A stretch of DNA of 64,000 nucleotides from Blastocystis sp. Blastoise (Eukaryota; Protista; Bigyra: Opalinata): contig JBBPEB010000029.1 of the NCBI GenBank assembly GCA_039096225.1, forward strand, positions 248,001-312,000, read 5' to 3'. Below the pieces are notes generated by a model. The model saw only the letters and a program-made list of their open reading frames with translations, was not told where the DNA came from and did no database searches. Made by a program: the position numbers and the translations under genes. This document shows positions 37,509-58,170 of this stretch, in pieces. Each line of letters opens with the position of its first letter. Within the stretch, counting starts at the first letter, position 1.

Positions 37509-37577
37509 TTTTATATGATTTTAATCAACAAAACAAAAAATAATTAATGATAAGTTAAAGATAAATAAATGATTTTA

Positions 37578-38249
37578 TTAAGATGCAGTAAAGTATATAT
37601 AAAGATTTGTATTCGATAAATCAATTGGATTATTTAATTGATCATATACTTCCCATTGGATATCTGTATATTTACCATCAATACATGGAATAGATAAATC
37701 ACTTAAAGCAAATGTATTATCAAATCCTTGTTTAGCATATAAAGGAATAGAAATCAAATCATTATCTTTATTAATAATATCACAATACACACGTAACATA
37801 TAGATCTTATACCATGAAATATTTTTGGAAATATAATCATCATTATAGGTAATACATGATTCTCTTCTAAAATATTCGTCAGAAAATCCTAAATAATTAA
37901 AGAAAGTATAATTATTAAGACTTTTTCTGAATTCACTATACGTACCAAATACTTTCATATCTTTATCATAAAAAAATGCACTCGTTTTTCCAGATTCATA
38001 TATAGTCATAGTTTTACCTAATTCAATTAATTCTTCTAAGAATTCTTCCAGAGTATAATTACCAGCTGGAAATGTATGTACTGTTGCATTATTTTCAGTT
38101 ATTCTGAAAGATGGAATATTAATGATATCACTTGTATTCACTAATGTATTGATATGAGTAATATTTTTACCTACTAAATCCAAAGTATAATTGAATTGTT
38201 CATGACAGATTTGACTTGTAATTTTACTTAGATGAGATATTGATGTCAT
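37578..38249 (-). CDS. Minor capsid (penton, single jelly-roll) protein
   Basis: Pattern FPAGNYTLEEF..YLGFS..LRVYCDII..LISIPL..IQWEVYDQLNNPIDL, typical of Polinton/PLV minor capsid proteins; lies between the ATPase and MCP. Confidence 0.7.
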   Translation of the reverse strand: MTSISHLSKITSQICHEQFNYTLDLVGKNITHINTLVNTSDIINIPSFRITENNATVHTFPAGNYTLEEFLEELIELGKTMTIYESGKTSAFFYDKDMKVFGTYSEFRKSLNNYTFFNYLGFSDEYFRRESCITYNDDYISKNISWYKIYMLRVYCDIINKDNDLISIPLYAKQGFDNTFALSDLSIPCIDGKYTDIQWEVYDQLNNPIDLSNTNLYIYFTAS

Positions 38250-38345
38250 TTTTATTAAATGAATTAATTATGAAATTATAAACAAAACAATATTTTTAAG
38301 ATTAATATAAAGTTGATACAAATAAGAAAATATTATATAATTAAA

Positions 38346-39569: not shown

Positions 39570-39739
39570 GTTAATAATTATTGTTTATGTATTTTTTAAA
39601 TAAAAAATAAAATAATAATGATATTTTATAATTATAAAATTATTTGAAATTCATAACAAAACAAATGATTGGAATATAGAATAGAATAGAATTAATTAAA
39701 CAAGTTAACGTTAAGAATAGTAAGTAAGAAATATTAAAT

Positions 39740-41212
39740 TTAAATATCACGTACACTACGTACAGCAATCATATGTAATGTATAAGGATGCTTCTCATTT
39801 AGTTCAGTATTAATATGTTTATAAATACCAGCATGAGATGCTACACTATAAGAAGCACCAGTATCCGGTGTCCATATTTTAGTAGTTTCATTATATGTAC
39901 ATGTATATCCATCAGGAACAGTGGATGAATTAGCATGACCATATTCAATATCATGAACATCTAGATTACAATCAAAATTCATTTCTATACCACTATCTGA
40001 TTGGATATTCATTAATGCTTTAGTTGGAATAATATAAATAGGATGTTTAATCCATTCATCATATTTAAGAATAGTTTCAGGATTTGAATTATCAGCCCAT
40101 AAACAATATAAATTTTTATTAGGACAAGATAAACTAGCAGTTTCTTCATTATTGAAGACATGACCTTTAGTAGTAAGATTATGATAATACATTTGAGTAG
40201 GGAATTCAGTTTGAGGGAACATTTGAACATCACCAATCAAACAACTTTGATATTTAGGCCATACAGATGGACTAGCTACATTACTAATAGTTGTTGAACT
40301 ATAACCATTTGTAAACCAGTATAATATATATTCAGGTATAAATGGTAAAGCTCTATTGATATTGAAATGATCACTAGTTATTCTTGTATTTTGATAATCG
40401 ACTTGAATACATGTAGGTATAGTTTTATATAATTCATTCGTTTGAAATTGAATATCTTTATATGTCATTAAATTCATAGTAGCTGATTCCAATTCAAATG
40501 TCTTAAACCATTTTTCATCAGTTAGATGTAACCATTGTGTTGATAGATCTTTACCACCATTCTTGAAATAAATACTCATATTATTATCAATTAAGGATTC
40601 AATAGTACTAGTTCTAAATAACATATTGAAATGTTTAGTTAATATTAATGAATCTCCATCAACACCTAAACCACTAATAAGATATAAAGGAATAGCAATA
40701 TGAATAGATTCATTTGGATGTGCACGTATATAACGAATAGAATTCAATTCATAAGTATCTGCAGATAAATCTTCACCATACATAGATTTTTCTAAATCAT
40801 TCTTACTGATATCTTTTAATAATATCATTTTACGACCACGTGAAGCATGTGTACAATTTTCTTCATATTTCAAAGCACGATCAGATCCATCAGGTAATGT
40901 ATAAACCATTTCAACATCAGTGGAATCAATAATAGAATAAATATTAGCTTTCTGAACTAATTGATCCAAGAAATATTGACATAATTGATCATAAGTGAAA
41001 CTAACAGAAGTACCTGTTTCATCTAAATAAACAGAAACTGGTCCTTTTTTATCTGTAACAGTTGCTTTGACAGTAAGATCCAAATAGGATTGATTGAAAT
41101 TGATATAAGTATTATCCACATTAGTCCAATGATATTGAAAGATATAAGGACTTGATAGAATATCAGTATCACTTTGAATAGGAATATTATCTTTAATTCT
41201 TAAGATTCTCAT
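39740..41212 (-). CDS. Major capsid protein 2 (paralogue of MCP1 with insertions)
   Basis: Shares YINFNQSYLDL, NIYSIID, KSMY, IPLYLISGLG, IPEYILYWF, IGDVQMFPQTEFPT and PIYIIP blocks with 38346-39569. Confidence 0.7.
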   Translation of the reverse strand: MRILRIKDNIPIQSDTDILSSPYIFQYHWTNVDNTYINFNQSYLDLTVKATVTDKKGPVSVYLDETGTSVSFTYDQLCQYFLDQLVQKANIYSIIDSTDVEMVYTLPDGSDRALKYEENCTHASRGRKMILLKDISKNDLEKSMYGEDLSADTYELNSIRYIRAHPNESIHIAIPLYLISGLGVDGDSLILTKHFNMLFRTSTIESLIDNNMSIYFKNGGKDLSTQWLHLTDEKWFKTFELESATMNLMTYKDIQFQTNELYKTIPTCIQVDYQNTRITSDHFNINRALPFIPEYILYWFTNGYSSTTISNVASPSVWPKYQSCLIGDVQMFPQTEFPTQMYYHNLTTKGHVFNNEETASLSCPNKNLYCLWADNSNPETILKYDEWIKHPIYIIPTKALMNIQSDSGIEMNFDCNLDVHDIEYGHANSSTVPDGYTCTYNETTKIWTPDTGASYSVASHAGIYKHINTELNEKHPYTLHMIAVRSVRDI

Positions 41213-41307
41213 ATTTCTTTTAATTTTAAATAAAATATTAATAAATAAATAAAATTAAATAATTTTTATAAATTAATATAAATTATAATTTAATAAAATT
41301 AGAAAAT

Positions 41308-43791
41308 ATGGAACTTGATGATGATAATTATGAAGAACAGACTTCATTAGAAGAGAAGGATACTCGTATTAAAACACATGTAGTCCCTATTGATGTTCGT
41401 TGTATTGATAATCAATTCAATATACATTTATCGAATTCTATTGATATCACTAAAAATATCATTTCTTATATTGATCTTAATTTAATTGGTAGTGAAAGTG
41501 TGCCTCTATTTGATACTTTCACAAAAACACAAATATTCAAATATATAAATACTCAAGTCAATGGTAATGAACAAATTCAAACAATTACTTTAGATCAGAA
41601 AAATTATTCTATTCCTCAATTATTAGAACAATGTCATTTTGATATATGTGATAGGCCATTAATAAGTGAATCTTCTGATATTGATCCTTCTGTTAAAATT
41701 AAGAAAATTCCAACAATTACAATTAATAGAGATGATTTTTATTGTGAATTTCATATTGCTAATGCAAGACGTGGTTTTAATTTCCCAAAAGGAACTTATA
41801 CAGATATAGAATTTTGGTGGATCGCTGTTTGTTTGGTATCTTCTGTATGGTTAGATAACAAAAATCGACTGATGATGAAATATGATGATGATAATATAAT
41901 AATATATCGACCTCAAACAACTTCTTTTCCTATTCCTGTTAGAACAACAGGGACTTATTCATTAAAAGAATATGCAAATAATGGTGTATTTAGTAAGTTC
42001 ATTCATGATATTCCTACACAAAGTAGTGAAGGAACAATTGAATGTGTAATTAATGAAGATCATAAGTTCTATTTTCAAGATGTAACTTCTCCAAATATAA
42101 ATATGATTCTAAAAATGGAAAATAATTTATTTACTGGTTTATTTGACGATAATGGAACACTAAAATACACTAAAAATGAAGAAGAAATTGTTTTGCAAAG
42201 AATTACGAATCCAGTTAAAGATGATGATACATATAATTTCAAAACATTAATTACTGTTGAAGATGGATATAATACAATGATTATTCGACAAATAAGTGGA
42301 ATGGGTGGTCGAATGGAAACTACATACACAATGCCTCCAGGAGAATATACTGAACAAGAATTCTATGATTTATTAGAAAGTTCAATCAATGGATCTCCTG
42401 AAACATATTACTTCGAAATATCAAAAGATGCTCAAACGATGGACAATAAAGATGGATATATAATATATTTATCATGGCAAGGTTATGATTCAAGTTCATG
42501 GACATTTACAGCTACAGATATAGAACATTCATTATTTAAATATCGTGGTGCTTTGCATAATATACGACCTGATTTAGTTTATGATAAACAAGGATGTTTT
42601 GCATGGAATATATCTTATGGTAAACAAACCATGGATGTACAAGTTGATTTAAATACACTTGATTTAGATGGAAATTATAGGTGTTATACGAATAATAGTT
42701 TTATGAATTTCTCTGAAGCACAAGAATTAGGTGAAATATTAGGTTATAGTAAATTATATTATAACGATGCAAATAGTTATTATGGTATTCATAATATTGA
42801 TAGTAGTCGTCCAAAAGGAATGTTAATAGCTCAATCGAATATAGTAGATAATAGTCAGAATTCTTTATATTCATTTAATGTGAATAATTATAAAGGCAAT
42901 AATGAATTTCATGATATTATGAATATTAATGTGTCTCCTTATTTGAATACCATACAAGATATTATTATACGATATACTGATAAGAATAAACAATATGTGA
43001 ATTTCAATAATAATTGTATTTTAAGAGGATTCTTAGAATTCTCAGATACAGTCGATACGATTCAACCAAGTGAAACCATTAAGAAATTATGTTTGAATTG
43101 TCAAACAGCAGATACACAATTCTATGCTGAATATCCTACATTGAATATCCAAAATAAGATCTTGAAAGATATTATTATTCAGAATGATACTGATACGATC
43201 CAAGCAAATGCATCTAAATTATGTACTGGATATATAAATGGATCTTATTATCCTACATTTAGTTTTCCTTTATCGGATAAATATGTTACATATAGTAATA
43301 TAAATTCTCCAATTACAATTGATCATCATATCGATTTAAGATTTGATGAATTATTCAAAGGAAATATAATTTGTAATATATGTGAACCTAATGGTAGTGA
43401 TATTCGTTTCAAAGCTTATGATGAAGTGTATTGTGATTTTAGTACAAGTAAGAATTTAATTTATGAATTGAAGAAAACCAATGTCTATGGATATCAATAC
43501 TTAACTAATATACAAGTTATATCAGTGTATGGTCAATCCACTGATTACTTATATCCTATTTCATTAAGATGTTTTACTAATGAATATGAGAATAATATTC
43601 ATGTTATTGATACTACAAATCTACCTTATTACTATTCGAATGGTATTAAATATGAAGGTATATCGAATAAGATCAATAAGAATGTTTATTATTGTAATCG
43701 TAAATTATTAAAGTTATTACCTCATGATAATATGTTCTTTATTACTTGTGATTATCCTTGTGTTGTTTTATTAACTATCTCTTATATATAA
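41308..43791 (+). CDS. Large penton-like / receptor-binding structural protein with nested insertions
   Basis: 827 aa. Repeated penton-type motifs (LDQKNYSIPQL, FPKGTYTDIEF, MPPGEYTEQEF), LGEILGY, IAQSNIVD, IQDIIIRYTDKNKQYVNFN, then a beta-rich C-terminal extension. Confidence 0.55.
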   Translation: MELDDDNYEEQTSLEEKDTRIKTHVVPIDVRCIDNQFNIHLSNSIDITKNIISYIDLNLIGSESVPLFDTFTKTQIFKYINTQVNGNEQIQTITLDQKNYSIPQLLEQCHFDICDRPLISESSDIDPSVKIKKIPTITINRDDFYCEFHIANARRGFNFPKGTYTDIEFWWIAVCLVSSVWLDNKNRLMMKYDDDNIIIYRPQTTSFPIPVRTTGTYSLKEYANNGVFSKFIHDIPTQSSEGTIECVINEDHKFYFQDVTSPNINMILKMENNLFTGLFDDNGTLKYTKNEEEIVLQRITNPVKDDDTYNFKTLITVEDGYNTMIIRQISGMGGRMETTYTMPPGEYTEQEFYDLLESSINGSPETYYFEISKDAQTMDNKDGYIIYLSWQGYDSSSWTFTATDIEHSLFKYRGALHNIRPDLVYDKQGCFAWNISYGKQTMDVQVDLNTLDLDGNYRCYTNNSFMNFSEAQELGEILGYSKLYYNDANSYYGIHNIDSSRPKGMLIAQSNIVDNSQNSLYSFNVNNYKGNNEFHDIMNINVSPYLNTIQDIIIRYTDKNKQYVNFNNNCILRGFLEFSDTVDTIQPSETIKKLCLNCQTADTQFYAEYPTLNIQNKILKDIIIQNDTDTIQANASKLCTGYINGSYYPTFSFPLSDKYVTYSNINSPITIDHHIDLRFDELFKGNIICNICEPNGSDIRFKAYDEVYCDFSTSKNLIYELKKTNVYGYQYLTNIQVISVYGQSTDYLYPISLRCFTNEYENNIHVIDTTNLPYYYSNGIKYEGISNKINKNVYYCNRKLLKLLPHDNMFFITCDYPCVVLLTISYI

Positions 43792-43860
43792 ATATTTTAA
43801 GACATTTCATTTAAATTAAAAAATGTTTTGTTATATTATTCATTTAAAAATTATTAAAAA

Positions 43861-44283
43861 ATGGAGCCTAAATCTGTATCTGAATCCTTACATTCTTTAT
43901 CAAGTACAAGTTCAACAAGTTCAGATAGTTCAACAACTACCACATTATCAGAAGAAGAAATAGAAAAGAAAAATACTTTATTAGAATTTATTATAAAAGC
44001 TATAAAATGTTTATTTGAGAAATCAACTGAATTCTTTCAATTAATTGTTAAAAATATAGATATTCATTGTAATTGTTGTAATCCACAAACAAAGAAAGTC
44101 TATTATAAGACAATGAAAATACAACAAACTATTATTGAAGAAGAAGTCAAACATATATCTGAAGTCTTGAATGAATTAGAAGAAATTGATTCTAATCAAA
44201 ATGAATCAATACAAGAATTAGCTGTTCAATTAATGAAATTAAATATAAGTGTTGATTCTATTGTTCAATCTCTTCATTTATAA
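43861..44283 (+). CDS. Hypothetical viral protein (Ser/Thr-rich N-terminus, CNCC, coiled coil)
   Basis: 140-aa intact ORF followed by the TTGTTTTGTT motif. Confidence 0.55.
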   Translation: MEPKSVSESLHSLSSTSSTSSDSSTTTTLSEEEIEKKNTLLEFIIKAIKCLFEKSTEFFQLIVKNIDIHCNCCNPQTKKVYYKTMKIQQTIIEEEVKHISEVLNELEEIDSNQNESIQELAVQLMKLNISVDSIVQSLHL

Positions 44284-44350
44284 TTCTATGAAATGTTATA
44301 AAATATTAATAATAAATTTGTTTTGTTTATAAATAATTTAATTTTTAATA

Positions 44351-46147
44351 ATGCAATCAACAGGTTATTCAGATAAAGATTGTGAAGAATTCTTTACAAA
44401 TTGTATAGATCAATTATTACATTGGAAGAAAATACAATTATCAACAAGTATAAATTGGAAGAAATGGATAAAGACAATATGTAAGAAATTTCGTAATGAA
44501 GAACGAATTCAAATAGATGATATGGAAGAACCATTCTTTTGTGTAGAAGTGTTAACAGATCCATTCCAATTTCAAAATGTTATGCAACATACACAAACAG
44601 AAGCTCCTGGACAACAAGGTGGATTATCCAATACTACTGTAGCTAATTATATGCAAATGATTACTTATATAATGAAGAATATATCTATTTGTACAGATGA
44701 TGAAGATATCATTAATTATAAAGCATTTACTCCACAAAATATAAAGAAATGGGAACATTTATGGGGTTCTTTACAAATTGATGCTACTTATTCAAGACAT
44801 TATGAAATTACTCAGAAAATTATTAATTGTGAAGCTGATTGGGGAGAAATCATTAATATCACCAAAAAGAATTATTTAGAGAATCCTAATGATTTATATT
44901 ATGTGAATAGTTATTTATTAGTTTTAACTTATGATACATTATGTGCTCGTAATGATTATAATGATTGTGTAATCTATACTCGTGGTCAACAAATTCCTTT
45001 ATCGTTAAGAAGAACAACCAATTATATTGATTTAAATACTTTAACTATTCATGTGAATGATACAAAGAATCGATTTGAAATTGGTAAGAATGAATATCCT
45101 ACTTATCAATATTTATCAGAAGAATATTTGAATGTCTTAGCTAGATCTTTACGTTTATTTCCAAGACATTATTTATTTGTTACTGAGAATGGTGGTAAAG
45201 TACGTGATTTGAAATTTGGTGATGAATATATAAAACCACATTTAGGCTGGATTTATAAAACACAACAGAATAATTCTTTAATTAATGGTTGTGATATTAT
45301 AAGACATTTATTTGCTCAATATTATTATAGATTATCAAGAGAAGCACAATTCCAACATGATGATTCAGAACATGAATCTAAAGGTGTAGAACTCTTTGAA
45401 AACTCTATTATGAAGATGTTACATAGTCAATCAACACATATGGAAAATTATATATCTCCTTATTTATCTTCTCATTCAACTAAATTGCAAGATTTAGATA
45501 ATAAAACAAGAACATTTCATATTGATATGAATAATATTACTTATACAAGAGAAATTAATCAATTAAATAAATTATTATTTTTATGTAAACGATTTAATGA
45601 TCGTATAGAACAATATGAAGAAGACTATGAAGATGTATTTGGTAAAGAGAATTTCAATATGAAATCAGAATCCATATTAAGTAGTCTAGAACAATATTCA
45701 TCAGATAATGATACTATAATGATTACATTAAGATATTATAAAGATCTATTAAAGCATCATTATCCAGATAAAACAGATTTAGAAAATGAATTACCTGTAG
45801 GATGTTCATTAGAATCTGAAGAAGTTCCAGAGAATTCTAGAGATCGTTATAATCGTTTTATACGTAATAAACAATTATTACCTGATCATTTACATAATAA
45901 TACAACGGATTCAGAATTAACGAATACTCAAGCATCTCTTATGCAACAGAATACTCAAGATGAAAACTCTACACCTATAGTTATGAATAATTCAGATACT
46001 TATGCATTACGTAGTCTTTCTACTATGCCTCCTTTAGAACCTATTCATCGTGGTCATGGTTTATGTAAAAAACATAAAAGTAATGCATTCTTTAAAGTCA
46101 AAGTCCCTAAAAAACATTTTCATGGAATTCAATTTAAATTTTATTAA
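44351..46147 (+). CDS. Tyrosine recombinase 1 (long)
   Basis: Catalytic pattern CARNDY (R), VNDTK (K), DIIRHLFA (RH), MLHSQSTHMENY (H..Y at +9); C-terminal RGHGL plus basic tail. Confidence 0.7.
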   Translation: MQSTGYSDKDCEEFFTNCIDQLLHWKKIQLSTSINWKKWIKTICKKFRNEERIQIDDMEEPFFCVEVLTDPFQFQNVMQHTQTEAPGQQGGLSNTTVANYMQMITYIMKNISICTDDEDIINYKAFTPQNIKKWEHLWGSLQIDATYSRHYEITQKIINCEADWGEIINITKKNYLENPNDLYYVNSYLLVLTYDTLCARNDYNDCVIYTRGQQIPLSLRRTTNYIDLNTLTIHVNDTKNRFEIGKNEYPTYQYLSEEYLNVLARSLRLFPRHYLFVTENGGKVRDLKFGDEYIKPHLGWIYKTQQNNSLINGCDIIRHLFAQYYYRLSREAQFQHDDSEHESKGVELFENSIMKMLHSQSTHMENYISPYLSSHSTKLQDLDNKTRTFHIDMNNITYTREINQLNKLLFLCKRFNDRIEQYEEDYEDVFGKENFNMKSESILSSLEQYSSDNDTIMITLRYYKDLLKHHYPDKTDLENELPVGCSLESEEVPENSRDRYNRFIRNKQLLPDHLHNNTTDSELTNTQASLMQQNTQDENSTPIVMNNSDTYALRSLSTMPPLEPIHRGHGLCKKHKSNAFFKVKVPKKHFHGIQFKFY

Positions 46148-46191
46148 TTTTAAAACAAAACAACTTTTTATAATAAAAAATAAATATATAT

Positions 46192-46356
46192 TTAATTTGG
46201 TATAGCATATAAAGTATTATCTATTAAAATTCGTTTTGTTGATGACGTATTATGATATTGATCTTCACTATAAACAATTTCTTCTTTCTTAGATAAACAA
46301 TTGGATAAACAGAATAAATCTGTATCTACACATTCATTATAAGTATTATCAATCAT
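46192..46356 (-). CDS. Small ORF (54 aa) whose ATG overlaps the primase-helicase stop (TAATG)
   Basis: MIDNTYNECVDTDLFCLSNCLSKKEEIV..YAIPN*; the minus-strand 3' motif lies at 46154-46163, just after it. Confidence 0.45.
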   Translation of the reverse strand: MIDNTYNECVDTDLFCLSNCLSKKEEIVYSEDQYHNTSSTKRILIDNTLYAIPN

Positions 46357-49193
46357 TAAACCACAAATACCAATAGCATTCCCCCCTTATAGAAATTTGA
46401 AGTATGTTTTCTATGAATATTCACAATATCTATAGAATTAAATGTATCTTTACTACTTAAACAACCAAATAAAGCATTTGTAAATTTATCTAAATCTTTC
46501 TTAATCGTAAATTGATTATTATTATTCACTTTCTTATAACTATTAAAAATATCTTCAATAGTAACTACATTCAAATAATAAGGATCTATAGTAATATGGT
46601 TATCAACAAAAGATTTCAAATCATATCCTTCTGTACTACGATCAAAGAATCGTTTCTTACATTCACTTATATGATATTCATTATCTAATTCATGCATATC
46701 TAATTGCATACTAGAATAGAAATAATTACTTACTAGATAACTAAAGATAATAGAACGATTCTGATAGAATTTATCGGATAGGGTATAATCCATTTCATAA
46801 TGATTGGGTTTCAATCTCTTTTCTACTGTCTGTTTACGTTTAGGTAAATTATGATCTACATAATCTTCATATAAATTAGCATTACCAGGAGGGAAATAAC
46901 GACAACATGATGGTAAGAAACAAACTCTTCTTTCAATAGGACCAGCATTCACAGCAGTAGGTTGAATATTACTTGTCATAAATAAAGTACCCGTGAAATG
47001 AACTTTTGTAAATATATTACTGAATAATTTACGAGCACTAGCACCTTCTTTCTTTTCTGCTATTTCTTTAAATACTTTAGAAGAGAATGGATTAAATGTT
47101 TTCTTTCTACCAGTAACATCTTCTTCTATTAATTCATTCATATAATACATTGTTTTATTAGACATATCTACAATCTTAGGAGCTATAGATGTTTCTTCTA
47201 AATTATCTGGATTTACTATAATACATTGATTACTACCTACAATACGAGAAATTAAATCAGTTGTTATTGTTTTACCATTACTACCTGTACTACCATATAA
47301 TATATAAGAAACTGTTTTCTGAGTATTGACATAGAAAGCAGTGGTTAAGATACGTAACATAATACTTTCATATTTCTTATCGAATTCACAATATCTTGCA
47401 ATATGTTGTTCAAATAATTGGATAATATCTTTCTGTTCATTATTTATATTCCAACTTACATTAAATTCAGTATCAATTAATAAATCTTCAAACACCATAT
47501 CTTCTTTATGATATGGTTGGATATAATATTGTCTAGGATCTTCTTCTGTAGATTCTTTTGGATATAAATAACCAAGTTGTGTATAGATAACACGTTCTTT
47601 ATGAACCATATAAGTATCTAAATATTCTTTATAAGATTTACCATAAGTCTTCAAATAACGATTCAACCATTCTTTATAATGATATTCATTAGTAACAGAA
47701 GCAGACATTATTTTATCAACTATTTTTTGATGTTGTTCATTCTCTTTGGAATATAATCTTGATAATTTGAATTTCTCTACAATCGATTTCATAAATGTAG
47801 TTATTTTGGTTTCAAAGAAATTAATATCATAATTATTCTTACAACGTCTTAAGATATTATATTCATCAAATGTATATAAGATAAAATTATCTTTATCTAA
47901 TATAATGGAAACAATTTCATTAAATTCTAATAATTGAAATAACATAACTAATGTTTGTGAATCTACAAGATTAAAGGATTGAATACATTCTAAAATAGAC
48001 ATAAATATGAAATCATTATCATCATCTTTATTAAATAATTTATTATCCATTAATATCTTCAAAATATAATTATTCGATAAATGAGTAGGATCAACTTGTA
48101 TATGATTCCATGTAGATTCAATTACATCATCACTTCGATCATGACCATAACGTAATGAATAATTTTTAAATAATTCTAATCCTCTTGTTGTATTACAAAT
48201 CTGTTTTGCTGCACAACATAATTTATACCAAGTATTATGAGATTCAAAATAATTCATATCTTCAATAGAACCAATCAATAATAAATATCGTTCCAATAAA
48301 GCTTCTTTAGATGCTGTAGTATCCAATATAGTATCTGTAGAAATCAACATAGGAATATCTTTAATATCTTGTATAGAACATAATATAGTACGTGAACAAT
48401 TATTTAATCTTGCATAATAACGTTTATAACGTGAATATTGTTTTAATTTATAAAAGATAATAGGATTAATAATATCACTTATAATATCATCTTCATTCTT
48501 ATAATTCAATAATGTTTTGAAATAATAATGTTCATCAATTTCATCATCTATTTTCTTCCATGATTTATTGGTATATTCTTCATATAATTTATAAGTAGAT
48601 GGAGAATTATCTTTACTACAACCAAGAAACATACAACCATTATTCTTTCTGGGTTTACCAATAACATTATAATCAATGAATTCTTTTATATCTAAATTAT
48701 ATGTTTTACATAAATCAACCAATTTTGTATTCAGAATCATACTATTATATAAGAAAAATAAATAATCACCATTTACAAACCAATTTGTATATATGTGAAT
48801 TCCCCATGAATAATGTATTTCATTATGAACTGTCTTCTTATTCACTTCTTTCTTTGTATACACAAGCGAAATAAATTCTTGATTATAATAATGAATACAA
48901 TGATTACACATTTCTTCTATAAATTCATGAATAAAAGAATCTGTTAGAAAAGAAAAATCATTTGATATTTGGTGATAATCTAAATCAAACCATAATCTTC
49001 TATAATTAGTTGATGTATTACAAGGAGTACAATCAATATAATGTAGTAATTCTTTTTGATGTTGGTAATTAGTAAATAGACTTTTATAAAATGGTAAAGG
49101 ATTTGGTATAATAATTTCACTATGATTATCTTTTGAGTTATCATGATTAAAGGAACCAAAAGTATAAACAAAATGAATTTGTGAATTTTCCAT
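46356..49193 (-). CDS. AEP primase-PriCT-2-SF3 (D5-like) helicase
   Basis: RLWFDLD and WGIHIY (AEP motifs), HNTWYKLCCAAK..LFKNYS..TWNHI (PriCT-2), Walker A YGSTGSNGKT, Walker B YYMNE, LFMTSN, ERRVCFLP. First ATG at 49193. Confidence 0.9.
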   Translation of the reverse strand: MENSQIHFVYTFGSFNHDNSKDNHSEIIIPNPLPFYKSLFTNYQHQKELLHYIDCTPCNTSTNYRRLWFDLDYHQISNDFSFLTDSFIHEFIEEMCNHCIHYYNQEFISLVYTKKEVNKKTVHNEIHYSWGIHIYTNWFVNGDYLFFLYNSMILNTKLVDLCKTYNLDIKEFIDYNVIGKPRKNNGCMFLGCSKDNSPSTYKLYEEYTNKSWKKIDDEIDEHYYFKTLLNYKNEDDIISDIINPIIFYKLKQYSRYKRYYARLNNCSRTILCSIQDIKDIPMLISTDTILDTTASKEALLERYLLLIGSIEDMNYFESHNTWYKLCCAAKQICNTTRGLELFKNYSLRYGHDRSDDVIESTWNHIQVDPTHLSNNYILKILMDNKLFNKDDDNDFIFMSILECIQSFNLVDSQTLVMLFQLLEFNEIVSIILDKDNFILYTFDEYNILRRCKNNYDINFFETKITTFMKSIVEKFKLSRLYSKENEQHQKIVDKIMSASVTNEYHYKEWLNRYLKTYGKSYKEYLDTYMVHKERVIYTQLGYLYPKESTEEDPRQYYIQPYHKEDMVFEDLLIDTEFNVSWNINNEQKDIIQLFEQHIARYCEFDKKYESIMLRILTTAFYVNTQKTVSYILYGSTGSNGKTITTDLISRIVGSNQCIIVNPDNLEETSIAPKIVDMSNKTMYYMNELIEEDVTGRKKTFNPFSSKVFKEIAEKKEGASARKLFSNIFTKVHFTGTLFMTSNIQPTAVNAGPIERRVCFLPSCCRYFPPGNANLYEDYVDHNLPKRKQTVEKRLKPNHYEMDYTLSDKFYQNRSIIFSYLVSNYFYSSMQLDMHELDNEYHISECKKRFFDRSTEGYDLKSFVDNHITIDPYYLNVVTIEDIFNSYKKVNNNNQFTIKKDLDKFTNALFGCLSSKDTFNSIDIVNIHRKHTSNFYKGGMLLVFVV

Positions 49194-49279
49194 GATTATT
49201 TGACTTATAAATAATGAAAATAAATATGGTATAAAATTCAAAACAAATAATATATTAAAGATTCTAGAAGTCAGTTTTA

Positions 49280-49399
49280 GAAGCTTCTAGAACATTCTAG
49301 AACATTCAGGAACATTCTATAATAGTAAATATTACTTTATATTTTTAAATGTTCTAGAACCTTCGAGAACCTTCTAGAACCTTCTAGAACCTTCTAGAA
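49280..49399. promoter_or_regulatory. Two heat-shock-element-like arrays upstream of the primase-helicase
   Basis: GAAgcTTCtaGAAcaTTCtaGAAcaTTCagGAAcaTTC (49280-49317) and TTCtaGAAccTTCgaGAAccTTCtaGAAccTTCtaGAAccTTCtaGAA (49352-49399). Confidence 0.65.
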
Positions 49400-49508
49400 C
49401 ATCATTTTTATACTTTAGTGTTTTAAATATATATACAATAAACAAAACAATTTTCAATGATTTTTACAAGTTTATAAGTAAAAATAGAAAAATAAACAAG
49501 AAAAATAA

Positions 49509-50132
49509 TTAAATTTCAATTGGTTCTTGACTATTAATATATGTACATGAATGAGGCCATCCATTTTTATCATATAAAATACCATCCCAGAAATACATTT
49601 GTTTTGAAGGATCTCTTTTAATCTTGTTAATACTCTTAGCATGAACAACTTCATAAGTATAAACTTTACCTTTTTCATCATAAAGGAATCCATCTTCCAT
49701 ATGGAATTTCATAATATCAAAATCATCATCTTTAGAATTCGAATGTTCTTTAGAATCTTCAGAACATAAAATAGTAGTTCTATCACTTTCTAAAAGATCT
49801 TCAGTATTGATAATATCTTGAATATCTTGTTCTTCATTAAGTTGTTGAGTATAAATATCAGCAGCGAATTCTTCATAATCTTCAAGACCTTTAATAACCG
49901 CGTTTATACGTTTTAAAGCTGATCTATAGTTTTCGACTTCGAAAGAAGCAAGACGTTCTTTAGATTTTGCAATACCCAATAGATTCTTTTCTCTATTCAA
50001 TTGAGACTGATGTAAATCAATATCACGAAGAACATTCTTATGAACTTCAACAGCCTTCTTAGAATTCTTAAGAAGTTCCATACGAACAGTTTGAAGACAT
50101 TTACGGGAATCAGCAGAAAGATTAAATTGCAT
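49509..50132 (-). CDS. Hypothetical coiled-coil viral protein
   Basis: ATG at 50132, heptad-rich N-terminal half, duplicated DG(F/I)LYD(E/K)(K/N)G motif; HSE-like element at 50244-50261 upstream. Confidence 0.6.
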   Translation of the reverse strand: MQFNLSADSRKCLQTVRMELLKNSKKAVEVHKNVLRDIDLHQSQLNREKNLLGIAKSKERLASFEVENYRSALKRINAVIKGLEDYEEFAADIYTQQLNEEQDIQDIINTEDLLESDRTTILCSEDSKEHSNSKDDDFDIMKFHMEDGFLYDEKGKVYTYEVVHAKSINKIKRDPSKQMYFWDGILYDKNGWPHSCTYINSQEPIEI

Positions 50133-50530
50133 TATAATCGCGAATATCGTTACAGAGAGAAAATTTGTATTTATCAAAATGAAATAAATAATACATTTAA
50201 ATGGAATATTAAATATTCTAGGAGACAGTGTAGAATCTCTATGGAATGTTCTAGAAGGTTCATTTGATTGGCTAATTTTGTCGACTTAGCATTTTTTATT
50301 TGTGTTTCAATGACGAGTATAGTTGGCATCTGTAATCTGATTGGATAAAAAAATTAGTAAAACACAATTAGACGATGACGACGACTTGTCATACAAAATA
50401 AGCTATTCTATTGGTTTATTTTCCAGCTGGAAGCAATAGGCTTTTGTTAGCAACTGAAATGAAGAACTGTACACTAAAAATAGTATATTTAATATATTGT
50501 ATAAAAATACTTTTGAAGGTTTAAATAATC

Positions 50531-51058
50531 ATGGAAATTCCTGATAGTCTTTCTGCCAGTTTATCCCCTTTCGGTCAAGCCATGATATCCCCCTTGTTGA
50601 ATCCATTTGAAAATAGTGTTTCTGAAAATCCTATGGCTTTACCCAATGATAATGATTTCTGTTTTAATTCGCGTGACGAAATCATATTTGAAGATCCACC
50701 TCAAGAAATTCATCCAATCAATGATGTTTATGTATCTAAAAATCCAGATAGATATCATTCGGTTAACAATCAACCAATACAATTTCAAGATCAAGTAAAT
50801 ACAAATCCTAATAAGCAAGCATTATTATTTACAAATGAGGAGTTAACAAATATATCCAGTCAATTCGAATCTTTATTTCAAACTATTGAAACAGCTGATA
50901 ATATATTAAATAGTATTTATTGTACTGTTGATCATTTAAAAACAAAGATTGAAAGTCAGAAACAAGATTTGAAACAGATTCATGATGATTCTAAAGAAAT
51001 TGTTTCATTATTATCCGAATATTCTATTCCTTCTATGTCTGAAATATTTGATCATTAA
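50531..51058 (+). CDS. Hypothetical viral protein (acidic N-terminus, C-terminal coiled coil)
   Basis: 175-aa ORF followed by TTGTTTTGTT at 51081. Confidence 0.6.
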   Translation: MEIPDSLSASLSPFGQAMISPLLNPFENSVSENPMALPNDNDFCFNSRDEIIFEDPPQEIHPINDVYVSKNPDRYHSVNNQPIQFQDQVNTNPNKQALLFTNEELTNISSQFESLFQTIETADNILNSIYCTVDHLKTKIESQKQDLKQIHDDSKEIVSLLSEYSIPSMSEIFDH

Positions 51059-51144
51059 TTTATTTATTTAATTAATTATTTTGTTTTGTTTATTTTTTAA
51101 ATTAATTACACAAAGTTTAAATGGAGAATAGAATAATTTCAAAT

Positions 51145-51253
51145 AGAATTCTTGAATGGTCTAATGGATCTATTAAAGAAATATGTAACCACAGTATCAT
51201 GGTTCGATTCCGTTAAAATGTTTCCATTAGATTATTCAAGTGTTCTTTTTTTT
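51145..51253 (+). ncRNA. Putative RNA polymerase III small RNA (VA/vault-like architecture)
   Basis: A box TGGTCTAATGG 51157-51167, B box GGTTCGATTCC 51201-51211, long terminal stem with G:U pairs, T8 terminator 51246-51253. Confidence 0.65.
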
Positions 51254-51299
51254 CTAGAACCTTCTCGAACATTCTAGAACCTTCTCGAACCTTCTGGAA
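51252..51299. promoter_or_regulatory. Heat-shock-element-like array upstream of the SSB-like gene
   Basis: TTCtaGAAccTTCtcGAAcaTTCtaGAAccTTCtcGAAccTTCtgGAA (10 units). Confidence 0.65.
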
Positions 51300-51376
51300 A
51301 ATTGATTCATTTGAAAAGAATATCTAAATATATTAGTATTAAAATACTTATATTTTTACTAAATACTTAACTAAAA

Positions 51377-51970
51377 ATGTCTACAACTGAATTTAAAAAA
51401 CCTACTATTCTTGATACTTCTAACTTTAATTTACAATGGGATGACACCAAAGAAAATGCTGTTCTTTTAAATAATAATCATCGTGTATGTATTTCTACTG
51501 ATGCTACACCATGTTTATTTGGTTATATTGTTACACGTGATAAATGGACTTTATTAACAATTGAAGATGATAATCAATTATTCTTAACTGCTTATAAAGA
51601 ACTTTATCGTAAATTATGTGAATTATGTCCTGATGGTGATATTGTTAATTTTGTACGTATGGATAATGGTAAATATAAGATTACAATTAAAGTACCTATT
51701 AATGCATCGAAGAATGTTACTATTGATATTACTGATAAAAGAGATAAGAAGATTAATATCGGTAAAGATCCTAAGTTAACTTACGAAGAAATACGTGAAA
51801 AGTATATTCCACCAAATACGTTATGTAAAGTATTATTTACAATACATGGTATTCATCGTTATAATAACAAGTATTATATTGGTTTATATGCTCGTTCTAT
51901 TAAAGTCATCGATAAATCTACGAAGAATACTAATAGTAATGATACTATTATTGATTTAACTAATTTATAA
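51377..51970 (+). CDS. Probable OB-fold ssDNA-binding protein (T7 gp2.5 / NCLDV DUF2738-like)
   Basis: TPCLFGY, KYKITIKVP and IPPNTLCKVLFTIHGIHRYNNKYYIGLYARSIKV resemble the viral SSB pattern; recognised by eye only. Confidence 0.5.
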   Translation: MSTTEFKKPTILDTSNFNLQWDDTKENAVLLNNNHRVCISTDATPCLFGYIVTRDKWTLLTIEDDNQLFLTAYKELYRKLCELCPDGDIVNFVRMDNGKYKITIKVPINASKNVTIDITDKRDKKINIGKDPKLTYEEIREKYIPPNTLCKVLFTIHGIHRYNNKYYIGLYARSIKVIDKSTKNTNSNDTIIDLTNL

Positions 51971-52044
51971 ATTTTTAATGTTAAATTTATTTTTTATTAA
52001 TATATTTGTTTTGTTTATAAATAATTTTATAATTGAAATAAAAA

Positions 52045-53673
52045 ATGCAAAGTTGTATATTAGGAATGCCAAGTCCTGGTACTTTTGGTATGAATTTAAT
52101 TTCAACTGGAAAAGAATATAGGCGATATAATACACAGCCATTACATAAAATGGATCAATATAATCCAATATTTCATGAAATAGGTCCAAATTCATCTATG
52201 CCTGTAACTACTTTAGAAAGTAAAGAAATACATGATGGTAAAGAAGATGATTATGTAGATCGTTCTAAAACATTTGGTAAAGATGCTGTTCCACAAGGAA
52301 ATGGTGCATTAATTCGTGCTAGAGCAGCAGGTAAAGGTGTAATGAAAGCAGCTGGTCCAGAAGAAGATAAAATAGATGGTGAAGATCGTCAATATAAAGT
52401 ATTAAATCCATGTAAACCAAGACGTAAATCTGGTAGAGGTATTATTCCAAATAAATCAGAAATCAATAAATTAGAAAATAATCAAGGTTCTGGTATTGGT
52501 GATGCAATTAAAAATAAAGTAAAAGATATGTATCAACGAAATGTATTAGATATAAGAGATGCTATTGTAGATAAAAAAGCTAATAGAAAAGCTCGTGATG
52601 CATTAGCTATTTTAGCTCAATATGTTGGTGATGGTCATCATGATCTTGATGATGAATTCAAAAGATTCTATGATCATAAAATAAAACGTGGTGGAAAGAT
52701 TCCTATATCTGTTGCTTCAGCAATTATGAATGCAATTAAAAATAAGAAAATGATTAAGAATCCAAAATTAAGAAGAATGTTAAGACCTTCAATTATACCA
52801 AAATATATAGATTTAGATTCAGCTCAAAGTGGTGATGGTATATTAAGAGTTAAAAGAGGTGGTGGATTCTGGGATGGAGTAATGAATTATGCACCAGCTC
52901 TTTTAGGTGTAGTTGATAAAGGTATGGATTCTTTTGCTAAAGGTAGAAAAGCTTATTATGATACACATTTGGCACAACAATCAAGTGAATTAAATGATAT
53001 GGAATTTGAAATGGAAAAATTAAAACGTCAACAAGCATTAAATGAAATGAAAAAACAAATAGGTTCAGGAAATACTATAAATAAAATGTTTGAAGGATAT
53101 TATGATGTAGCTGATGAAATGCAAGATGCTCTTAACGAAGATGATAGACTACATCCACAACCCGTTGTTCAACCTCCACCACCTCCACAACAACAAGTTG
53201 TTAGACCTCCTCAACCTCAACCTCCTCAACCTTATAAACCTATGTCTCGTGATGAACAAAGTTATCCTTATAAGATTTATGGTTTCCCTCAAAATGATAA
53301 GGAGAAAGTCGATAGAAAATGGAAAGAAGATGAAAGGGATAAACGAATAGCTGCAAGAAGAGCTAAACGTAGAGGATATGGTGGTCGAGTTAAATTAAGT
53401 AAAGAAGAATTCTTAGAACGAATGAGAAGAGGAAAAGAAGCTAAAAAGAAAAGAGGTGGTGAATTGCCTCCATTGGTAACAGCTTATACAGATTTTGTAA
53501 TACCTGCACAAGTAGAACAAAGGAAACGTAAAGTAGCTAAAAATGATTTAAAACAATTACAAATTATAAAACAGAAAATGGATAATAATGAAATATTAGA
53601 TAGAGGTGAACAAATGTTTTGGAAAGAAAAGAAGTATATGTTATCAAAAAACTCAGGGGAGGGGATCTGGTAA
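52045..53673 (+). CDS. Core polyprotein precursor with many GxG/RGG maturation sites
   Basis: 542 aa, basic and Pro-rich segments; QGNGAL, AGKGVM, SGRGII, QGSGIG, KRGGKI, SGDGIL, KRGGGFW, IGSGNT, GYGGRV, KRGGEL. Confidence 0.6.
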   Translation: MQSCILGMPSPGTFGMNLISTGKEYRRYNTQPLHKMDQYNPIFHEIGPNSSMPVTTLESKEIHDGKEDDYVDRSKTFGKDAVPQGNGALIRARAAGKGVMKAAGPEEDKIDGEDRQYKVLNPCKPRRKSGRGIIPNKSEINKLENNQGSGIGDAIKNKVKDMYQRNVLDIRDAIVDKKANRKARDALAILAQYVGDGHHDLDDEFKRFYDHKIKRGGKIPISVASAIMNAIKNKKMIKNPKLRRMLRPSIIPKYIDLDSAQSGDGILRVKRGGGFWDGVMNYAPALLGVVDKGMDSFAKGRKAYYDTHLAQQSSELNDMEFEMEKLKRQQALNEMKKQIGSGNTINKMFEGYYDVADEMQDALNEDDRLHPQPVVQPPPPPQQQVVRPPQPQPPQPYKPMSRDEQSYPYKIYGFPQNDKEKVDRKWKEDERDKRIAARRAKRRGYGGRVKLSKEEFLERMRRGKEAKKKRGGELPPLVTAYTDFVIPAQVEQRKRKVAKNDLKQLQIIKQKMDNNEILDRGEQMFWKEKKYMLSKNSGEGIW

Positions 53674-54239
53674 AGAGTAAAGATGAAAAACTTATTCAAA
53701 ATTCAATGAATTGCGATAATCCTATTATATCTGATAAAACTCGTCATGTTACTCCTAGATCCCCTGATAATTTTAAACAAACTCTATTTCAATATTGTAA
53801 TATACCCAATTCTTTAATATCTCAATTATATAATTATGCTTATTTAAATAAACCTACCTCTTCTGTTGCTTGTGATCGTGCTGAAAATGTTATGAAACAA
53901 TTAAATAAAACGAATTCTCAATCTTATAATTATTATAATAGTTATGATGATTTTGAACAAAATATAGATCAAGATCAAACTAAATTTAATATGATCTTTC
54001 ATGAAAGTCCTAGTGATCCTTATAATGGTCATTTTGAAGCTGTTATTTATAATGGTAATAAAAATATAGAACACTATTCATCATTAGGAAATAAACCTAC
54101 TTTTTCAAAATCATTTATTCAAAATCATAATATTCAATATAATCCTATTCAACACCAAAAAACTACAAGTAATGCAAATGGTTGCTTTTATTATTCTTTA
54201 CTTTATTTACTTTCTAATGGAAATCTTATGCCTTGTTAA
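53619..54239 (+). CDS. Adenain/Ulp1-like cysteine maturation protease (-1 frame relative to the core polyprotein; first ATG 53706)
   Basis: GHFEAV (His), EHYSSLG (variant of the usual FDS(F/L)G), oxyanion QHQ and GCFYYSLLYL (Cys). Confidence 0.7.
   Translation: MERKEVYVIKKLRGGDLVKSKDEKLIQNSMNCDNPIISDKTRHVTPRSPDNFKQTLFQYCNIPNSLISQLYNYAYLNKPTSSVACDRAENVMKQLNKTNSQSYNYYNSYDDFEQNIDQDQTKFNMIFHESPSDPYNGHFEAVIYNGNKNIEHYSSLGNKPTFSKSFIQNHNIQYNPIQHQKTTSNANGCFYYSLLYLLSNGNLMPC
53646..53765 (+). promoter_or_regulatory. Candidate -1 programmed ribosomal frameshift signal
   Basis: In-frame slippery heptamer A AAA AAC (53646-53652), 7-nt spacer, stem AGGGGATCTGG/CTAGATCCCCT (53660-53670/53755-53765) extended by GAGTAA/TTACTC. 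Confidence 0.65.
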
Positions 54240-54325
54240 AACCTTCTAGAATATTCTAGAATCTCTAATTTATTATATTAATATTTTGTATAATTAATTT
54301 GTTTTGTTTATTATTTAATACTATA

Positions 54326-54481
54326 ATGACAAAGAAACGATTTGGCAATTACTACTTAGATCGTAGTGCAGAAACTTTAGAGAATGTAAATGAAATACTG
54401 TCAGTTATTGAAATTGTTCTTATTATTATATATATTTTACTTTACTTCTATATGTCCAAGAAACGTTCTAGAACATTCTAG
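54326..54481 (+). CDS. Small single-pass membrane protein (51 aa)
   Basis: ILSVIEIVLIIIYILLYFYM hydrophobic run followed by basic residues; HSE-like element at 54244-54261 upstream, 3' motif at 54552. Confidence 0.45.
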   Translation: MTKKRFGNYYLDRSAETLENVNEILSVIEIVLIIIYILLYFYMSKKRSRTF

Positions 54482-54583
54482 AACATTCATTTTGAACTGG
54501 CTCTATTTGTAGAATCTTTAATTTATTATATTAGTGTTTTATATAATTAATTTGTTTTGTTTAATCATTGGTTAATTTTAATA

Positions 54584-54958
54584 ATGAACAAGAAATATCT
54601 TAGTTATTCTTATTTTTGTCGTGTGATGAAGAATCTAAAAGAAGAAGGAATTAAATCCAAAAAGAATGAAATAGCGAATCTTTTAGAACAATTTTTAAAT
54701 AACAATAACAACAAAAATCTTAGTGATTTACAACTAAGTTATTGTAGAAACATGTTACTTTATATAGATGATCCTGTGATTCATCAACGTCTTGAAATGC
54801 TATTGGATAAACAATATATGAAGAATGAGAATCAATATCAAGAGGATAAGAATCTTATTCAACCCAATAATATGTTTATGCCTACTATGAAAAGTAATCA
54901 ACAACAAAATCAATACCAAAATAATAATAATAATCTATCTTTCTTACCTTTTAATTAA
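54584..54958 (+). CDS. Hypothetical viral protein (Asn/Gln-rich C-terminus)
   Basis: 124-aa ORF from ATG 54584; HSE-like element at 54466-54488 upstream, TTGTTTAGTT at 54982. Confidence 0.55.
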   Translation: MNKKYLSYSYFCRVMKNLKEEGIKSKKNEIANLLEQFLNNNNNKNLSDLQLSYCRNMLLYIDDPVIHQRLEMLLDKQYMKNENQYQEDKNLIQPNNMFMPTMKSNQQQNQYQNNNNNLSFLPFN

Positions 54959-55031
54959 TTTTTATATCCTTTTATTACTAGTTGTTTAGTTATATTCAAA
55001 ATTAAAACAAAACAAACATAAAAACATAAAA

Positions 55032-55967
55032 TTATTCAATTAATTTTTTAAATAAATTATTATTTTCTAAAGATACATAAGAATTAATATGTGTATAATC
55101 ATTATGACATAAAGCAGAAGCAGAATTTTCTATATCTTGGAATGTATTGGTTGTAGTTGTAGCATATAATTTTCTTAATGCATTAATGGTTAATTTTGGA
55201 TGGATTTGTTTTAAATGCTTATTCACAAACCAATCAAATGCTTTAGTAGTAAATCCAGTTCGTACAGAAGATTCAAATATAAATTTACGATTTGGATTTC
55301 TTTTTAAGAGTAATTCTAGATCTTCAATCAATTCTTTTGGTGCATCTAATTGAATTGTAGAGTATTTACCAGCAGTTTTATAATCATTCAATAGAATAGA
55401 ACCAGTGTGTTTCTCTTTATCATAAACAATATAATTCTTATGAATAGCTGGATCAATAGTATCTTCTGGAGTTAGAATGAATAATTGAGCATAATCAGCA
55501 CGAGCAGGAGGAAGATAGGAGTAAAAATCTAATATTAATCGTAATGGATTATAATTTTCTAATTTATCGTGATATTCATGTAAATATGGAGTCGTAATAC
55601 CATCTTTAATAAGATCTTGAATCAAAGTGCGTTTCTTATTATCCAGATATTTTTCATACATAGAATTGATAATCACATAAAATTCACACCATTTATTTAA
55701 AATACCTTCTTTATTTAATGAAGAAACATTACGTATAATAAATAATATCAATTCACATAACGATTTCATTGGACTAATTTTGATTTTACGTTCATTTACC
55801 ATATAATCCATGAATGAATAAGGATTCTTTAAGAATTCTGAGAACTTTTTAAATGGTAATGGGAAAATATATAAATTGAAATAATTGGTTAAACGTTTTT
55901 TCCAAATATCAGAATAATTTGAATTCTGTATAACCAAAAGATACTTGTCATAATTTGTATTTTTCAT
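55032..55967 (-). CDS. Tyrosine recombinase 2 (integrase- or protelomerase-like)
   Basis: PPARADY (R), LNDYKTAGKY (K), NALRKLYA (R..Y), LCHNDYTHINSY (H..Y at +9); adjacent to the right TIR. Confidence 0.8.
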   Translation of the reverse strand: MKNTNYDKYLLVIQNSNYSDIWKKRLTNYFNLYIFPLPFKKFSEFLKNPYSFMDYMVNERKIKISPMKSLCELILFIIRNVSSLNKEGILNKWCEFYVIINSMYEKYLDNKKRTLIQDLIKDGITTPYLHEYHDKLENYNPLRLILDFYSYLPPARADYAQLFILTPEDTIDPAIHKNYIVYDKEKHTGSILLNDYKTAGKYSTIQLDAPKELIEDLELLLKRNPNRKFIFESSVRTGFTTKAFDWFVNKHLKQIHPKLTINALRKLYATTTTNTFQDIENSASALCHNDYTHINSYVSLENNNLFKKLIE

Positions 55968-56055
55968 TGATTTTCTCAAGTAGAATCTTTAAAACTTCTA
56001 TTTTCAAAAGAATAATACATAAGAAAATCAAAATAAAATATCTAAGATTCTCATG

Positions 56056-56967
56056 TTCTCGAATGTTCTAGAAGTTTCGAGAATGTTCTAGAATATTCTA
56101 GAAAATTGATATACATCCCGCCACCTAAAACCACTGGAACACAATTAGTTTCCCCAGTTTCCCCAATATAATTGTGTTTTTGTGTTCCGAAATCCCTCAT
56201 TTTTACAATTTTAAGCAATTTGATTGGACAATTCACGATGACGCATCCTATTTCCATAACGGTCACCCTTGTTTCCAAAAGTCTCTCGTTATAGTCGTGG
56301 TGGTGGGTACATCTTTTTACAAGACCACACCACCACCAGCTTTTCTTTCACCCACTATAAATACATACCTTGATCACTTTACTCTTTTTTATATAAATTT
56401 TTTATGATTATCATGACTTTTTATATTATTTATTGATCACTATACATACATTTTTATTTTTATATATTCCCGTGATTATTTTTATTATTTCTTTTTAGAT
56501 AGAACCATCCATTTCATCTTTTCTCTATATAAAGGGAGGGTCGGGGTGTGTGTTTATTTAGCACATTCTGTGCTTCTTTTCGTATTTCTTTCTGTATTCC
56601 CGTGATTATTTTACTCACTTTACCAACGATGGAGTCATTTTCCATGAATATTCCCTGTAAAGGGGAGGGTTGGACTGTGTATTTTATTTCTTTTATGATT
56701 ACTATGAGTTTCTCCTTGATCACTTTACGTTTCACGTTGGAATCGGAACACAAATAAATTAAAAATAAATAAACATGGGAAAAAATAAATACACACACAC
56801 ACTACCCTACACTCCCATGGTTATTTTACTTCAGAAATGTTATTAATTCTTCCGTCGAGAACAAAAAAGGGGGATGTCTTCCCCGCTTATGGCTGCGCGC
56901 GTCGCGCAGACTCTATGCGGGGTTTGCATACCCCCTTCTGCAGTTCGAAGAACGGAAGAATTATTAT
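56056..56967 (-). repeat. Right terminal inverted repeat (912 bp)
   Basis: Reverse complement of 31736-32647; its HSE-like array (56056-56103) lies upstream of tyrosine recombinase 2. Confidence 0.95.
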
Positions 56968-58170
56968 TTTGTTTATATCTTATAAGAGTTAAACACAATA
57001 CAATAACTAATTTTTTGGCTATTTGTTTGTTAGATCACGGATTCAAAATAATTAGTAATGCCTAGAATATGATAAATAGGCACACACATAGCTGATAACC
57101 TAATTACAATCACTTGAGTAAGCTTTATTTGATGTTTCAGTTAGGCATGTAAATATTTTAAAATTTGTTTTATTTTTAAGAGTATAGTTTTAAATATATA
57201 ATGATACAAACCGGTTTACGAATAATTATTGTTATTATGAAACGATTTATTCAAATTTATATGTCACGTCGATGTGAAGAATTACATTATATTCAAAAAT
57301 TTTTATAATACTTGTTGAGTAAATTTGTTGGTTGAAAGAAAACGTTAAAACAAATCAAACTAGAAGTTTGAACTTAATGACTGATATAATGTTGTGTTCT
57401 TTTATGCTGACAAAACGAATCTCACGTTATCATATATACTTTACAAACCAAACAATCAACATATAACAGTGTCTTATAAAATATCACATCGACATTCTTT
57501 AGTAGAGAGTGTTTATAGTAATTAAAAGCAATTAATATTTTAAACTTAAGTTGAGTATTTATGGAATCAGATGTATAAATGGGTTTTTACAACATAGTAA
57601 ATAATAAATGAAGGTCAATTCATAGCTAATATTAAATCGTGAAGTATGGTTGTGACGTGTGTCTTCAAAACATTTTTTTTTTTAGTATATTACAGCAAGA
57701 GTCTTAAAGAAAACGAGGTTTAATAAAAATTGTGGAAACTACTAAAAAAGAAAAGAATATTCCATACAAATTCCATAAAGATTTTATTATTTGGTTTATT
57801 TTATAAAATATTTAAATAGATATAAGGCTAGCTGATATTGATTATGTGTATATAATTGTTTACATAATATATACACTGTTGGCACCTAATATTTGAATTA
57901 ATAATAGGTATCTAAGAAAATCAACTTCAGGCAGGATTGTTGTATACATCCATGGTTAGATAATAGTGAATCATGATCGGTGAGCAAGCTTGGGATGAAA
58001 CAAAAACTTTACTTTTAAAGGAGATTTGCCTAATCAGAAATTGAAAGAAGCCGCCTTGCAAAATGAATTTGTATATAATTATGTAGTCTTATTCTTATAG
58101 TCAGCCACTTTGGTTATGACAGTTTTATTTATAGTTGGCTTTTTAAGTTTCAATTCTGTTCTTTACACGC

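Follow-up and report, generated by a model that had tools for sequence, protein, structure and literature searches.

The analysed window, a 64,000-nt stretch of contig JBBPEB010000029.1 of Blastocystis sp. Blastoise, contains a 25.2-kb element with 18 intronless open reading frames (ORFs) of at least 124 aa. Its terminal inverted repeats and its length, which falls into the 15–30 kb range of Polinton-like viruses (PLVs), lead us to read it as an endogenous PLV. The ORFs include a P-loop packaging-ATPase-like protein (weak FtsK match), a D5-type primase-helicase and a weak tyrosine recombinase, and the latter two are present instead of a protein-primed PolB and an rve integrase, for which no match was found among the 18 ORFs, thus removing a Polinton (Maverick) proper from consideration. 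The nearest viral clusters of a capsid-like ORF of 407 aa lie at 0.97, one of them with a DJR-like assignment on 10% of its members, which is a lead only. By eye, the adjoining minus-strand ORFs at 38346–39569 and 39740–41212 resemble each other and are possible duplicated capsid genes. The palindrome TTCTAGAA occurs in 20 copies, grouped in intergenic regions and in the terminal repeats (clusters at 32600–32630, 49262–49392, 51252–51272, 54244–54476 and 56066–56096), which are possibly regulatory or origin sites, and the strongest hairpins of the element are located at 49260–49410 and 51130–51300. Host genes at 483–4700 (+) and 7300–11910 (−) are rich in introns and have BTB-like N-termini; the introns inferred in them are mostly of the type GTA..TAG, about 50 nt long and rich in AT repeats.

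The junction described here involves two overlapping reading frames of the element (Table 1). The upstream ORF encodes a protein that we infer from its composition and motifs to be a core protein, and searches against Pfam, NCBIfam and PDB sequences returned no family match for it. Its close homologs are named Blastocystis sp. Blastoise proteins, which comprise 21 distinct copies among the matches listed. All 21 end in the same 14 residues, with 23 of the 56 preceding columns varying among them, and recombination between the copies may have produced this invariant end. A 496-aa ORF of the same element (32936–34426, −), whose first 70 N-terminal residues match the core ORF at 30% identity (E 9e-6), appears from its sequence to be a second, paralogous core precursor that carries xxGG motifs and is devoid of a fused protease.

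Table 1. Features of the core-protease junction and of the element carrying it, in window coordinates
Feature	Position	Strand	Remarks
Endogenous Polinton-like virus	31733..56970	.	inverted arms 31733–32679 and 56024–56970, about 950 bp each
Core polyprotein ORF	52045..53673	+	542 aa, basic, repeated xxGG motifs; ends in YMLSKNSGEGIW followed by the stop
Protease reading frame	53610..54239	+	−1 relative to core; predicted clan CE fold
Candidate 23-nt intron GTATAT..CAG	53634..53656	+	most plausible splice candidate; product ..KEKKGG↓DL..
Slippery heptamer A AAA AAC	53646..53652	+	in phase (TCA AAA AAC)
−1-frame L-R-G-G↓D	53652..53666	+	predicted cleavage site; a cut would yield a protease of about 191 aa
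7-nt spacer TCAGGGG	53653..53659	+	within the 5–9 nt range
Predicted stimulatory stem-loop	53660..53765	+	11-bp basal helix 53660–70/53755–65, then 6-bp and 5-bp helices
Core stop TAA	53671..53673	+	top of basal helix
First in-frame ATG of protease frame	53706..53708	+	32 nt beyond core stop; likely internal Met
TTGTTTTGTT motif	54299..54308	+	first downstream of core gene; likely 3' end of shared core-protease mRNA

The downstream frame encodes the protease. Pfam, NCBIfam and PDB sequence searches gave no name for it, and its assignment to the clan CE (adenain/Ulp1-like) fold is based on a predicted model, built from 23 sequences with a pLDDT of 82, whose fold matches include the adenovirus protease adenain (Z 7.5), ASFV pS273R (Z 7.8) and poxvirus I7L (Z 6.6). 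The best 29 of the 50 fold-match rows shown are CE-type enzymes by title (Z 9.3–5.1), and a MELD virus protease matches the model at E 2.7e-5. Residues His141 (54030–54032), Gln183 (54156–54158) and Cys192 (54183–54185) follow each other in catalytic order and are invariant in all seven aligned rows, among them that of P0102, a protein with a passing match to Pfam Peptidase_C5; a replacement of the catalytic Cys by Asn was ruled out by the alignment. The position aligned with the Asp of P0101 and P0102, the usual catalytic Asp/Glu, is occupied by a Ser (54078–54080, in YSSLG) throughout the protease family, which perhaps indicates a rearranged catalytic triad. Among close relatives of the protease, a Glu two residues past the catalytic His is invariant. 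Adenain cleaves after (M/I/L)xGG, and the xxGG motifs of the core and the LRGG at the core-protease junction are putative cleavage sites.

The first-pass annotation had described the protease ORF as overlapping the end of the core ORF in the −1 frame, with a correctly phased heptamer and, 7 nt past it, an 11-bp stem continued by GAGTAA/TTACTC and GATGA/TCGTC, and this observation of overlap, heptamer, spacer and stem is confirmed. The open protease frame begins at 53610 and the core ends at 53673, so both share 64 nt. Within the stem, AGGGGAUCUGG pairs with CUAGAUCCCCU, and the helix continues with GAGUAA/UUACUC and then GAUGA/UCGUC, the latter with one G-U pair. The predicted stem-loop, which encloses an 84-nt multiloop, has a minimum free energy (MFE) of −29.4 kcal/mol with pair probabilities of 0.89–1.0. 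The search for a pseudoknot partner of the stem gave nothing better than −4.8 kcal/mol, which, like the multiloop, counts against the frameshift reading. A search of the region against Rfam returned just two sub-threshold miRNA-type hairpin matches. The spacer segment UCAGGGGA (53653–53660) can also pair with the 3' arm (53760–53767) in an alternative register, forming a duplex of −15.2 kcal/mol that accounts for 3–14% of the predicted ensemble and that might act as a possible attenuating switch. From the heptamer onward, the −1 frame contains 195 open codons, with homology setting in at 53661–53676, whereas readthrough of the core stop, which we discarded, would add 11 codons only. The proposed cleavage motif KKLRGG↓D stands with respect to LRGG↓D in the −1 frame; the preceding KK is a plain −1-frame translation, and tandem slippage would instead yield S-K-N-L-R-G-G-D.

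In-phase heptamers are not rare by themselves, with 26 in the 6,830 codons of the element. The one at the junction has the best helix starting 5–9 nt downstream (−18.1 kcal/mol versus −9.4 kcal/mol for the next), and it is the sole one where the −1 frame stays open for more than 24 codons. Helices of −18 kcal/mol or below start at 4 of the 46,382 positions of the element, and three of these belong to one non-coding intergenic palindrome. For the segment as a whole the deviation from shuffled sequences is modest, with a z-score of −2.67 for 53653–53770 (3 of 200 shuffles as good) and a weaker −1.83 for 53640–53790 (11 of 200). Upon synonymous resampling with a fixed 5' arm and an unchanged protease protein, the helix was matched in 24 and the MFE in 13 of 2000 cases. 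The codons of the junction are rare in the element and run against its AT bias, which we count in favor of a frameshift signal: AAA AAC is found only at the heptamer, with all other 28 Lys-Asn pairs of the element ORFs encoded as AAA AAT, and AAC (31 of 591 Asn codons), GGG (6 of 252 Gly), AGG (7 of 245 Arg) and the Leu codons CTG (6) and CTC (7 of 523) are all uncommon.

The transcript layout of the element would place both frames in one unit. The motif TGTTTTGTT, with at most one mismatch, is located within 230 nt 3' of 17 of the 18 ORFs (exact after 14), and the core ORF is the sole exception, as claimed earlier for the region between core and protease. Since it is found at convergent gene ends and is absent from divergent starts, the motif is likely a 3'-end signal, and core and protease would thus reside on a shared mRNA. 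Examples of the motif are located at 44318, 52006 and 54299 (+) and at 17212, 34452 and 55006 (−), and it is also present after a host-side transposase. A 51-aa ORF at 54326–54481 (+), with a hydrophobic stretch and its own 3' motif at 54552, possibly encodes a small membrane protein. At 36416–36425 (−), the motif behind the ATPase gene directly adjoins the start codon of the following ORF (36415), leaving no gap, and may cut or uncap the leader of that ORF. The motif resembles the downstream element TGTTTGTT of human Blastocystis, with one extra T. A conserved element at transcript ends has been described for human Blastocystis, and the same study (PMC10690189) reports no enrichment for tortoise isolates, where a variant element may thus have been missed.

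The protease might alternatively be translated on its own, from the ATG at 53706 or from a CUG at 53667, either from a separate transcript or by reinitiation, with the hairpin being incidental or serving another role. The ATG would give rise to a 177-aa ORF containing all catalytic residues, and the CTG at 53667 has a G at −3 and at +4. In two relatives, P0001 and P0002 (61% identical), the protease is called as a separate ORF of 177 or 190 aa, and the 190-aa calls begin at a Met in the position of this CTG. The residues of the same two proteins allow just two of the four testable pairs of the stem, so that this lineage is unable to form the same stem, which counts against its conservation. 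However, the surroundings of the ATG do not resemble those of a start site in this element: its leader has 33% GC compared to 2–22% for the other 17 starts, a T is found at −3 where 16 of these 17 carry a purine, no 3' motif precedes it, and an out-of-frame ATG at 53683, 23 nt upstream, would intercept scanning ribosomes. Moreover, protease homology begins 10–15 codons upstream of the ATG, and its Met is internal in relatives that are fused in frame and replaced by Leu in P0099, whereas the conserved GG preceding it would serve no purpose in a protein starting at this site. The 177-aa protease is absent from the protein collection, which is uninformative since, of 10 further ORFs of the element that were looked up, 3 are missing from it as well. 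On balance, we consider independent translation of the protease to be unlikely.

The principal new evidence for a fusion comes from relatives in which a single ORF covers core and protease, namely P0108 (617 aa, from ENA, in a 30-member cluster), P0104 (ENA) and P0098 (Logan), all three from metagenomes and known from gene calls only. They match the core frame of the window up to 53541–53631 and its protease frame from 53676 (52060–53541 and 53676–54236 in case of P0108), with their proteases being 53–54% identical and the last core segment homologous. The fusion that a −1 shift would make thus exists as a gene form, which supports the initial interpretation. The alignment at the junction places LRGG↓DLVKSKDEKLIQNSMNCDNP of the window next to PTGG↓TQFSKDEDKIQDAMDCDNH of P0104 and WGG↓LEESKNEKLIQEHLDCDNP of P0099, and a GG is found at the same position in P0098, P0104 and P0099 (PSGG↓TQ, PTGG↓TQ and WGG↓LE, respectively), compared to KGKG in P0108; 190 aa follow the GG in P0104, in agreement with the about 191 aa predicted for the window. 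Four relatives, P0099, P0105, P0109 and P0100, are represented by eukaryotic gene models, where joins may be predicted introns. The first three of them connect core and protease at two different points and were not counted as in-frame fusions, because these points resemble predicted introns bridging the break. Together with P0100, P0106 and P0107, they point to at least two further PLV families in the same named Blastocystis assembly that contains the 21-copy family. At the residue level, P0099, which represents a second family of split appearance, is compatible with 10 of 10 tested stem pairs, a point in favor of the frameshift, compared to 5–8 of 10 in the fused relatives. The S-K-N at the heptamer is invariant in all 21 listed core copies. 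DNA of relatives was found in none of the viral contigs, JGI metagenomes, prokaryote genomes and phage records searched, and a search for the pattern of heptamer plus stem returned 120 loci, none of them related. None of the eight branches of a protease tree is supported, and an Atlas look-up of P0108 gave just a 0.85 lead.

Nearly the same fusion could also arise if a short GT..AG intron with its end in the CAG at 53656 were removed inefficiently, in which case the unspliced RNA would encode the core alone. Three GT..YAG candidates of 17, 23 and 41 nt would restore the frame and keep the GG. The 23-nt candidate starts with GTATAT, which is the commonest donor among the introns inferred in neighbouring host genes; its product KKGG↓DL matches KKKGG↓DL, a site located further upstream in some core copies, and all 21 listed copies carry the same K-Y-M across the donor. 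These properties are opposed by the character of the host introns, which, in an unvalidated ab initio model of the neighbouring genes, have a median of about 50 nt, with 1 of 42 being 23 nt or shorter, and end with TAG in 40 of 42 cases at a GC content mostly below 20%, whereas the candidate ends in CTCAG and has 26% GC. For tortoise isolates, too, introns are described that exceed 30 nt and vary more in length (PMC10690189). GTATAT itself occurs seven times in element ORFs, three times with a YAG 20–60 nt further on, yet the 18 ORFs are read without introns and all 21 annotated copies are unspliced at the junction. Since splicing would also leave heptamer, spacer and stem unexplained, we regard it as an improbable origin of the fusion.

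Finally, the frames might be separated by an unprogrammed break, either because one A was systematically lost in assembly or because a defective lineage inherited a one-base deletion in a once in-frame fusion gene. One extra A in the run at 53646–53651 would indeed fuse the ORFs in frame, and relatives fused in frame exist. The first-pass annotation had named an in-frame fusion in other copies as a refutation of the shift, but all 21 divergent copies among the matches listed stop at the same place. Similarly, 21 other A/T runs of at least six bases lie in intact ORFs of the same copy, and relatives obtained from short reads are split as well. One of three sequencing runs provided shallow contigs, none of which spans 53580–53728, and one contig covering 53729–53881 shows three differences, all of them outside the 3' arm of the stem. 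A break of this kind, which predicts neither the 7-nt spacer nor the strongest helix of the coding region, appears very improbable.

We thus favor the view that the protease is made by programmed −1 frameshifting at A AAA AAC, with the stem-loop as likely stimulator, and assign it a probability of about 0.7. According to this mechanism, a single mRNA would begin at the start of the core and reach as far as the motif at 54299, and on it most ribosomes would terminate at the TAA at 53671 to produce the 542-aa core precursor, while a minority would slip back by one base and continue to a 731-aa core-protease fusion (536 + 195 aa), thereby rebuilding the one-ORF architecture of the fused relatives. 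By analogy to adenain and Gag-Pro biology, the fusion would be packaged along with the core, cleavage behind LRGG would release the protease with its about 191 aa, and the freed enzyme would process the other xxGG sites. Judged from its sequence, we regard the site as a genuine and well-built candidate for a recoding signal, located in a setting that is new for such signals and supported by the relatives that are fused in frame.

Such a signal would be read by stramenopile ribosomes and would alert annotators to the truncation, loss or false splicing of this protease in automated gene calls. How, and in what amount, Polinton-class viruses bring their maturation protease into the particle is the question on which tethering bears, and a family in which core and protease are linked in frame in some members and by a proposed shift in others suggests attachment to the core precursor as the route. 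Frameshifting is known from few eukaryotic DNA viruses (PMC8310308). Our literature search, which covered main texts and few subscription papers, found no paper on Blastocystis PLVs and no core-protease frameshift in Polintons or PLVs, with the available text of PMC8502044, PMC12721341 and 10.1101/2024.03.23.586382 containing nothing on this arrangement, although the supplements of PMC11071296 may annotate more. The claim that the strategy is not known from Polintons or PLVs has to be narrowed, since −1 shifts were predicted by software in adintoviruses, for pentons and for hexon–adenain ('Hexain') fusions (PMC11071296). Hexain is the closest precedent, as it concerns a Polinton-class virus and a −1 shift by which, according to the proposal, a virion protein is joined with the protease; it differs in its capsid partner, its animal hosts and in its origin from a one-sentence KnotInFrame prediction, for which section 16 of PMC11071296 cites no in-frame-fused orthologs.

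The parallel to the gag-pro sites of MMTV and HTLV extends to the heptamer A AAA AAC itself, to a spacer of 6–8 nt, with 6–9 nt being typical of −1 frameshifting, and to the connection of a structural precursor with its maturation protease (PMC12789967, PMC3835772). In contrast to retroviral Gag-Pro, the element in the window is a dsDNA virus with a predicted cysteine protease of clan CE instead of an aspartic protease, the partner is a predicted core protein instead of a capsid protein, and the stem is long and multibranched, with no pseudoknot found. With respect to its clan CE fold, the order of His, Gln and Cys and its GG-type cleavage motifs, the predicted protease resembles adenain, ASFV pS273R and poxvirus I7L, which are encoded by stand-alone genes, and it is distinguished from them by the Ser at the position of the usual acid and by two residues inserted before the Cys. 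The same domain order is found in the gut-metagenome elements P0108, P0104 and P0098, whose residues fit the stem less well and whose single ORF would imply a 1:1 stoichiometry with no need for a shift. Taken together, we lean towards a scenario where Blastocystis PLVs have converged on the retroviral Gag-Pro strategy by tethering the protease to the core precursor, either in frame or via a −1 shift at A AAA AAC, with the latter providing an evolvable dial on the protease-to-core ratio in a eukaryotic dsDNA virus.
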